This document shows, piece by piece, positions 6,001 through 8,105 of a DNA stretch of 8,105 bases. Where the stretch lies: the IMG/VR virus record IMGVR_UViG_2654587685_000008; one strand, 5' to 3'. Position numbers: made by a program. Source of the stretch: a virus. Taxonomy: Duplodnaviria > Heunggongvirae > Uroviricota > Caudoviricetes. Every line of letters starts with the position of its first letter. The stretch's first letter is position 1.

Positions 6001-8105
6001 GAAAGAGACCGCGACTTACCATGTATCTCGTGCGGAACGCTCACGTCTGCTCAGTGGGATGCCGGACATTACCGGACAACTGCTGCGGCACCTCAACTCC
6101 GATTTGATGAACGCAATATTCACAAGCAATGCGTGGTGTGCAACCAGCACAAAAGCGGAAATCTCGTTCCGTATCGCGTCGAACTGATTAGCCGCATCGG
6201 GCAGGAAGCAGTAGAGGAAATCGAATCAAACCATAACCGCTATCGCTGGACTGTCGAAGAGTGCAGGGCCATCAAGGCGGAGTATCAACAGAAACTTAAA
6301 AAACTGCGAAACAGCAGAAGTGAGGTTGCATGAATATCTACGAAAGAATTGATGGCAGCAAATACCGAAATATTTGGGTAGTTGGCGATCTGCACGGATG
6401 CTACACGAACCTGATGAAAAAACTGGAGACGATAGGATTCGACACCAAAAAAGACCTGCTTATCTCGGTGGGCGATTTGGTTGATCGCGGTACAGAGAAC
6501 GTAGAATGCCTGGAATTAATCACATTCCCCTGGTTCAGAGCTGTACGTGGAAACCATGAGCAAATGATGATTGATGGCTTATCAGAGCGTGGAAACGTCA
6601 ATCACTGGCTGCTTAATGGCGGTGGCTGGTTCTTTAATCTCGATTACGACAAAGAAATTCTGGCTAAAGCTCTTGCCCATAAAGCAGATGAACTTCCGTT
6701 AATCATCGAACTGGTGAGTAAAGGAAAAAAATATGTCATCTGCCACGCCGATTATCCTTGTGATAAATACGAGTTTGGAAAGCCAGTTGATCATCAGCAG
6801 GTAATCTGGAACCGCGAACGAATCAGCAACTCACAAGACGGGATCGTGAAAGAAATCAAAGGCGCGGACACGTTCATCTTTGGTCATACGCAAGCAGTGA
6901 AACCACTCAAATTTGCCAACCAGATGTATATCGATACCGGCGCAGTGTTCTGCGGAAATCTCACATTGATTCAGGTACAGGGAGAAGGCGCATGAGACTC
7001 GAAAGCGTAGCTAAATTTCATTCGCCAAAAAGCCCGATGATGAGCGACTCACCACGGGCTACGGCTTCTGACTCTCTTTCCGGTACTGATGTGATGGCTG
7101 CTATGGGGATGGCGCAATCACAAGCCGGATTCGGAATGGCTGCATTCTGCGGTAAGCATGAACTCAGCCAGAACGACAAACAAAAGGCTATCAACTATCT
7201 GATGCAATTTGCACACAAGGTATCGGGGAAATACCGTGGTGTGGCAAAGCTCGAAGGAAATACTAAGGCAAAGGTACTGCAAGTGCTCGCAACATTCGCT
7301 TATGCGGATTATTGCCGTAGTGCCGCTACGCCGGGCGCAAGATGCAGAGATTGCCACGGTACAGGCCGTGCGGTTGATATAGCCAAAACAGAGCAGTGGG
7401 GGATAGTTGCTGAGAAAGAGTGCGGAAGATGTAAAGGCGTCGGTTATTCAAGAATGCCAGCAAGCGCCGCATATCGCGCTGTGACGATGCTAATCCCAAA
7501 CCTTACCCAACCCACCTGGTCACGCACTGTTAAGCCGCTGTATGACGCTCTGGTTGTGCAATGCCACAAGGAAGAGTCAATCGCAGACAACATTTTGAAT
7601 GCGATCACACGTTAGCGCCATGATTGCCACGGATGGCAACATATTAACGGCATAATATTGACTTTTTGAATAACTTTGGGGAAACTTGACACCAATAATG
7701 GGCGTTTTTTACATGTCATTGATGAGTCTCAATAACCTGCCGCCGAGTAGTTTTTATGCTCTGAATTGTATTTGTGTAGTAAACATGCTGACTGCAATGT
7801 AATAGAGTTTTTTTAGCCTGTAACCTCTTGACGGCATTGAATTGCTTTTGTTATGAGTTGTAAGCCAATGTTATCATCTTGTATTGGGGTGGTTATGAAG
7901 GATGGTGCGCTGCTCAGGAGTTCTTCACTTTTTATTGCCTACATGGGATGCCTTGGATGGGGGAGTGCTTATTTCTATGGATGGGGTACTTCTTTTTACT
8001 ACGGCTTCCCGGTAATGACTCCAACTTATTGATAGTGTTTTATGTTCAGATAATGCCCGATGACTTTGTCATGCAGCTCCACCGATTTTGAGAACGACAG
8101 CGACT

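Follow-up and report, generated by a model that had tools for sequence, protein, structure and literature searches.

A probable recent IS1 insertion in a putative TfpB-family accessory gene behind the late promoter of a lambda-like prophage

The analysed stretch of DNA, 8,105 nucleotides of a tailed-phage record (IMGVR_UViG_2654587685_000008) that is further referred to as the window, covers a lambda-like prophage from within the replication gene P through ren and the nin region to Q, its early-right and late-control regions, and ends inside the insertion sequence IS1. Complete prophages that match it occur in many E. coli genomes. The best overall explanation, which we consider probable, is that IS1 recently transposed into an accessory gene of this prophage, the first one downstream of the late promoter PR′. 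Judged from its reading frame, this gene, annotated as a member of the TfpB family, is inactivated, and only a 45-residue stub (39 native and six IS1-encoded residues) could be made from it. The part of P that is included, ren, the nin region, Q and PR′ are intact and ~100% identical to complete prophages elsewhere in E. coli, and nothing in the sequence shows that the late genes of the prophage have been lost or silenced. As an event this is an ordinary IS1 insertion in a non-essential prophage accessory gene, of a kind that is already known.

The last 95 nucleotides were assigned to IS1, as had been proposed in an earlier note on this DNA. E. coli OkiPb01675 (L004) has a 768-bp element, annotated as 'IS1 family transposase, programmed frameshift', whose end agrees with them at 95 of 95 positions. 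Compared with 5,426 complete E. coli genomes, the segment gave 71,695 matches spread over 4,963 of them, where it is annotated as IS1A or IS1B, and copies of the IS1 end number about 10 per genome at the median and up to 66. Of the insA and insB′ frames, which a programmed −1 frameshift fuses into the InsAB′ transposase of IS1, the window includes the last 25 codons of insB. Translation of these codons on the minus strand (Table 1) gives SLSFSKSVELHDKVIGHYLNIKHYQ and then a stop; this peptide, which we take to be the C-terminus of InsB, agrees with the minus-strand annotation of the transposase in the OkiPb01675 locus. insB is antisense to PR′ and insAB is directed back towards Q, the orientation that had also been read earlier, together with a distance of about 320 bp from PR′ to the element; counted from the inferred start site (about 7694), the distance is ~318 bp. 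Intact relatives continue after GGCTTCCC with ATGGTGG and the window continues after the same GGCTTCCC with GGTAATGACTCC, so that the intact target diverges precisely at 8011, the base with which the IS1 inverted repeat opens. A break this exact, at the very terminus of the element, is the mark of transposition and speaks against a chimeric join by the assembler. Known insertions of IS1 (IS1A/IS1B-type, 768 bp) have the same terminal 95 bp, with the 23-bp repeat and the 3′ end of insB, and as with them the junction falls at the exact end of the element, the target gene is inactivated, and polarity on unmodified transcription is to be expected. The element itself is unremarkable, whereas the insertion site is absent from every collection searched.

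Table 1. Features of the late-control region and of the IS1 junction in the window
Feature	Position	Strand	Basis
Q, lambda-type late antiterminator gene, 207 aa, intact	6992..7615	+	lambda identity, Pfam, phage 2B8
PR′ late promoter and Q-utilisation site (qut), predicted	7658..7702	+	homology to lambda PR′/qut
PR′ −35, TTGACT	7658-7663	+	alignment to lambda
17-bp spacer with Q-binding element	7664-7680	+	alignment to lambda
PR′ −10, GAAACT (lambda: TAAATT)	7681-7686	+	alignment to lambda
−10-like pause element, AATAAT then GGG (lambda: AACGAT-GGG)	7694-7699	+	alignment to lambda
Degraded remnant of the phage 434 intrinsic terminator	7737..7757	+	folding comparison with phage 434
Sigma-70-like promoter match, TTGTTA, 18 bp, TG-TATCAT	7848..7877	+	promoter scan
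First 39 codons (38 complete + two bases) of the gene for a 238-aa TfpB-family (PF27470) inner-membrane protein, cut by IS1	7895..8010	+	homologue identity
Predicted target sequence CGGCTTCCC, expected to be repeated at the other IS1 end if the insertion is simple	8002..8010	.	usual 8-9 bp duplication
IS1 right end; the window ends inside the element	8011..8105	-	95/95 identity to annotated 768-bp IS1
IS1 terminal inverted repeat, right end, GGTAATGACTCCAACTTATTGAT (~23 bp)	8011-8033		identity to IS1
insB, last 25 codons and stop	8026-8105 (codons 8029-8103, stop 8026-8028)	-	translation

The open frame that is cut by IS1 (7895-8032) encodes MKDGALLRSSSLFIAYMGCLGWGSAYFYGWGTSFYYGFP, the 39 native residues, then VMTPTY from six IS1 codons and a stop (8030-8032), the six codons and the stop having been described before, and comparison with its homologues shows these 45 codons to be the remnant of a gene and not a gene in their own right. 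The earlier suspicion that it is the N-terminus of a disrupted cargo gene was borne out when 7895-8010 was compared with intact lambdoid late regions: it is 100% identical to the first part of VUD36457.1 of phage 2B8 and of WP_001302581.1, and hundreds of E. coli prophages, as well as phages 2B8 and 434, have an intact homologue of 238 or 247 aa in this place. The choice of the ATG at 7895 also stood, with 25 of the 25 aligned homologues, down to 46% identity, beginning at the equivalent methionine; some annotators use an alternative upstream ATG at 7868, which gives 247 aa instead of 238 aa. The gene has been annotated as 'Phage protein' (2B8), 'putative membrane protein' (434) and 'hypothetical protein' (WP_001302581.1, RefSeq), and PF27470 'TfpB' is the label that precomputed annotation gives to the identical protein and to each of 108 homologues. 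The intact 247-aa protein gave no family in the local copy of Pfam and nothing in the NCBIfam or PADLOC libraries, and it matched PHROG 1521 (1.9e-154), for which no function is annotated. A search of the accessible literature for TciB, DUF3927 and TfpB found nothing relevant and no trace of the name 'TfpB'.

The intact protein has an N-terminal aromatic/Gly motif, four to five hydrophobic helices and a small C-terminal beta domain, a description based in part on an AlphaFold model (mean pLDDT 58, pTM 0.38; too uncertain for a fold search), of which only the secondary structure was used; the window retains residues 1-39. IS1 cuts inside the most conserved motif of the family, GWGSAYFYGWG.SFYYGFPWW, which is invariant or nearly so in the 25 homologues down to 46% identity, and does so upstream of all strongly hydrophobic segments and of the beta domain. 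The DNA at 7954-8001 is an imperfect 24-nt tandem duplication (79% identity) encoding GWGSAYFY / GWGTSFYY, and the IS1 of OkiPb01675 lies within its first copy, that of the window 9 bp after the second. The intact form of the gene clearly predominates in the databases; many entries, for example P0002, P0005, P0013, P0026, P0028 and P0080, are nevertheless frameshifted, internally deleted or N-terminally replaced, which suggests that the gene often decays in E. coli prophages.

The junction is, as far as could be searched, confined to the window. BLAST did not find it in the 5,426 complete E. coli genomes, an exact scan for the left junction returned nothing from GTDB species representative genomes or metagenome contigs, and neither of these two collections held the predicted right junction with a duplication of 8-12 bp allowed. 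The truncated ORF, looked up exactly from each of three possible starts, had no match, nor did a strain-specific repeat-containing ORF. Positions 1-8010, on the other side of the comparison, match prophages of three complete genomes at ~100%; aligned in detail to one of these, the AMSHJX01 prophage, they show a single mismatch and a repeat that differs by 36 bp in length. Since the flank is ~100% identical to prophages elsewhere and the junction is absent from them, IS1 seems to have entered recently, and in the source strain alone.

In OkiPb01675 (NZ_AP042478.1, 858,697-859,464) the TfpB-family gene also carries an IS1, the product of a separate event and unique to that genome. It shares with the window the gene, the orientation (transposase antisense to late transcription), the interrupted N-terminal motif and the identical element end; it differs in lying 48 bp upstream, in its target, GGATGGGG, and in standing behind a Q82-type antiterminator rather than a lambda-type Q. 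The prophage that hosts it is bio-side and effector-carrying. Both ends of this IS1 are visible and mark a simple insertion with an 8-bp duplication, GGATGGGG, after which come the rest of the gene, DUF3927, an esterase, holin, lysozyme, terminase, portal, capsid and tail genes. This was the sole comparable insertion inspected.

What lies beyond the IS1 of the window can be approached from such expectations. IS1 usually duplicates 8-9 bp of its target, and simple insertion is the main outcome of its transposition. On these priors and on the one precedent of OkiPb01675, we hold it quite likely that the insertion in the window is simple and that 8-9 bp of its target are duplicated at the two ends. 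The element would then be followed by CGGCTTCCC-ATGGTGGATTG..., the right junction would read ...AAGTTGGCAGCATCACC-(C)GGCTTCCC-ATGGTGGATTGTAGG, or, written otherwise, ...GGCAGCATCACC + 8-9 bp of CGGCTTCCC + ATGGTGGATTGTAGG, and ~0.78 kb further on the remainder of the gene would resume, followed by DUF3927, the actual late terminators and the genes for holin, lysis and morphogenesis. IS1 has about 10 copies per genome, and the window breaks off after 95 bp of it; the sequence past 8105, including the far end of IS1, is outside its view; an end in a multi-copy repeat is typical of short-read contigs. The claim that IS1 truncates the late region, made in the earlier note, is therefore left without support, and in OkiPb01675 the late region resumes.

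A rearrangement, by which an adjacent deletion, an inversion or IS1 x IS1 recombination would have eliminated or displaced what remains of the gene together with all or part of the late region, is the reading that competes best, and we regard it as unlikely. The far side of the element is unseen, the median of about 10 IS1 copies per E. coli genome (up to 66) offers many recombination partners, and adjacent deletions and inversions mediated by IS1 are common in IS-rich genomes; yet the flank is ~100% identical to intact prophages, hence the event is recent, and it is simple insertion that is established as the primary product of IS1 transposition. Some drafts do have prophages of this kind with large late-region deletions, one of them (L006) passing from holin directly to head-tail and tail genes, whereas the only IS1 inspected in a TfpB-family gene is simple, with its duplication and an intact late region. 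Draft contigs L006-L012 were considered as right-hand partner of the window and rejected, as IS1 sequence is lacking in them and their first base lies 9-16 nt past the expected start of the duplication; such starts fit assembly breaks at sequence variants between prophage copies.

If the insertion is simple, its consequences depend on Q and PR′. Q is ~97% identical to lambda Q at the nucleotide level, its product matches Pfam PF03589 Antiterm (1.2e-57), which places it in the lambda family, and an identical Q is present in the plaque-forming phage 2B8 and in many E. coli prophages. PR′ and qut were assigned, and the start site at about 7694 was deduced, by column-by-column alignment to lambda, and a function is predicted for the module from this homology. 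At the sequence level both the Q-binding element between −35 and −10 and the initially transcribed −10-like pause element are present, with −35, Q-binding spacer, −10 and pause element in lambda order, and the region is 90-92% identical to annotated promoter/qut sites of HK97, HK022, mEp234 and others. Unlike lambda, the window has GAAACT instead of TAAATT as −10, differs at 4 of 21 positions of the Q-binding region and contains no 6S/tR′-like terminator within the first 320 nt. The earlier view that the sequence follows lambda through Q and the PR′ −35 was right, but the divergence that it placed directly after the −35 comes later: homology extends through the spacer, the −10 and the pause element and ends at ~7700. 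As lambda homology reaches ~7700 and the sequence at 7751-8010 is common to phage 434, which has a Q82-type antiterminator, the late leader is a mosaic. Phage 2B8 has the whole of 7616-8010 at 100% identity, and the study that it comes from plaque-purified every phage that was sequenced; this version of PR′ is thus part of a working phage, and from that occurrence we infer that PR′ with the GAAACT −10 is active.

A consensus scan of 7500-8105 found no tR′-type intrinsic terminator shortly downstream of PR′. The terminator of phage 434, AACCCGCTGCCGAGTGGGTTTTTTTT (L002, 3482-3507), folds at −13.3 kcal/mol (z = −4.3), and its counterpart in the window, AACCTGCCGCCGAGTAGTTTTT, at −2.2 kcal/mol, not better than shuffles. 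In the intact relative the first strong plus-strand terminators come after DUF3927 and just before holin, 1.3-1.7 kb downstream. By this arrangement two cargo genes appear to sit upstream of the terminators that Q must override, and the module would work like that of lambda, but with cargo placed upstream of the terminators, a layout that resembles the Stx phages, where accessory genes also stand between PR′ and the holin gene. PR′ is constitutive in lambda. With the cargo ahead of the first strong terminators, it might be transcribed in lysogens, independently of Q, from PR′ or from the sigma-70-like site at 7848-7877. The latter, also found in the intact relative, is the sole promoter-like match in 7500-8105, a region whose shuffles give 1.7 ± 1.3 matches, so that it is not significant alone; located just upstream of the membrane-protein gene, it is possibly a promoter of its own and is offered as a lead. 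For structured RNA, 7500-8105 gave no Rfam matches and folding not better than shuffles.

The polarity of IS1 is mostly Rho-dependent and is classically seen, strong, with insertions in either orientation. In an uninduced lysogen, unmodified polymerase coming from PR′ or from the gene's own promoter would enter untranslated antisense IS1 RNA, and Rho would probably stop it there, the RNA being untranslated after the stop at 8030-8032; the DUF3927 gene, if co-transcribed, would also be silenced. After induction the situation should be different. A 2025 review (PMC12360218) calls lambda Q 'a proven polarity suppressor' and states that polymerase loaded with it is highly processive and resists pausing and termination. 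The Q complex narrows the RNA exit channel and suppresses pausing and termination across the ~25-kb late operon (PMC12360218). On these general properties of Q, read-through of IS1 by Q-modified polymerase is expected, and the 768 bp of the element should be crossed, with late expression at most reduced, not abolished. The natural leader, with 1.3-1.7 kb of cargo and two strong terminators, is already crossed with the help of Q, and an extra 0.78 kb of IS1 should hence be crossable as well. Given a simple insertion and the current knowledge of Q, it is unlikely that the prophage is defective for late gene expression, as the earlier note had thought probable, and on present evidence it should not be labelled so.

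One may nevertheless ask if IS1 could be polar even on Q-modified transcription, which would leave the late genes present and the prophage induction-defective. The strong polarity of IS1 insertions in both orientations, mentioned above, speaks for it, as does the detail that lambda Q complexes need NusA and that protection from Rho was shown in vitro with Q82 complexes (PMC12360218); convergent transcription from the IS1 promoter could add interference. These points have to be balanced with the role of lambda Q as polarity suppressor over the entire late operon, with a natural leader in which holin is preceded by two strong intrinsic terminators and by >1.7 kb of cargo, and with other phages of the same type that have a further 1.8-kb esterase gene in the same interval, and on balance such a block appears rather doubtful to us. 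Bacteriophage P1, a viable temperate phage that naturally carries IS1, illustrates that a functional genome can hold the element, and its insA and insB score as non-essential in a CRISPRi essentiality table; its IS1, however, is not within an antiterminated late operon leader and is uninformative on read-through. Phage 2B8 was rejected as a case of a late leader that tolerates an IS, its two 'Mobile element protein' genes being misannotated. This pair (L001, 5539-7516; LR595859.1, 44094-46071) is a split DUF1737 + SASA esterase + DUF6645 part and is nanS-p-like.

Two independent insertions in the same orientation, 48 bp apart in the most conserved motif, with the upstream terminator degraded, lead to the speculation, a long shot in our estimate, that the TfpB-family gene behind PR′ is a recurrent, selected target at which IS1 acts as a substitute Rho-dependent stop. 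Equally slender is its extension, namely that a costly membrane protein and DUF3927 would be silenced in lysogens while Q-modified polymerase would be unhindered after induction. The weakest reading, that the prophage contig was chimerically joined to an IS1 read or k-mer path from elsewhere, takes its appeal from a window end 95 bp into a multi-copy repeat, a typical spot for contig ends and misjoins of short reads, and can practically be set aside, as a break at the very terminal nucleotide of IS1 is unlike a random chimera and the target and the IS1 end share no similarity able to mislead an assembler.

The gene interrupted by what we consider to be a recent IS1 transposition belongs to a recognisable neighbourhood. 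In intact relatives the TfpB-family gene is followed by a gene for a 52-aa DUF3927 protein ('TciB-like' in PHROGs), an optional nanS-p-type esterase gene, holin and the lysis genes. Its homologues stand behind the late promoters of three unrelated types of Q, that is lambda Q (window), Q82-type (434) and PF06530 Q (Yersinia). Homologues of 46-59% identity adjoin heat-labile enterotoxin A/B and STb genes on transposase-rich contigs (L013-L015, 3501-4214), and another adjoins Sif and a GDSL-lipase (SseJ-like) effector-like gene (L016, 3501-4217); these may be remnants of a phage leader carried along with virulence cargo. The association with three Q types and the occurrence outside phages beside toxin and effector genes mark a mobile accessory ('moron') gene. 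For annotation of the window the gain is that its last 95 bp are IS1 and that the disrupted gene is a widespread, uncharacterised prophage cargo, and natural knock-outs like this one could be ready controls for studies of the TfpB-family gene.

Two further features of the window are recorded here in their own right. An ORF of 590 aa (2819-4591) lies in the nin region on the minus strand, against the direction of the early operon; it is without match in Pfam, NCBIfam and PADLOC and falls in PHROG 9230, for which no function is annotated, and its position and orientation suggest a cargo or defence candidate. Between this divergent ORF and an HNH endonuclease gene (5190-5756) there is an AT-rich spacer of ~600 bp with a perfect hexamer array, (TATTTC) x 14.8, at 4908-4996. 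The array is 36 bp (six units) longer in the window than in the otherwise identical AMSHJX01 prophage, and its copy number is thus variable among strains.
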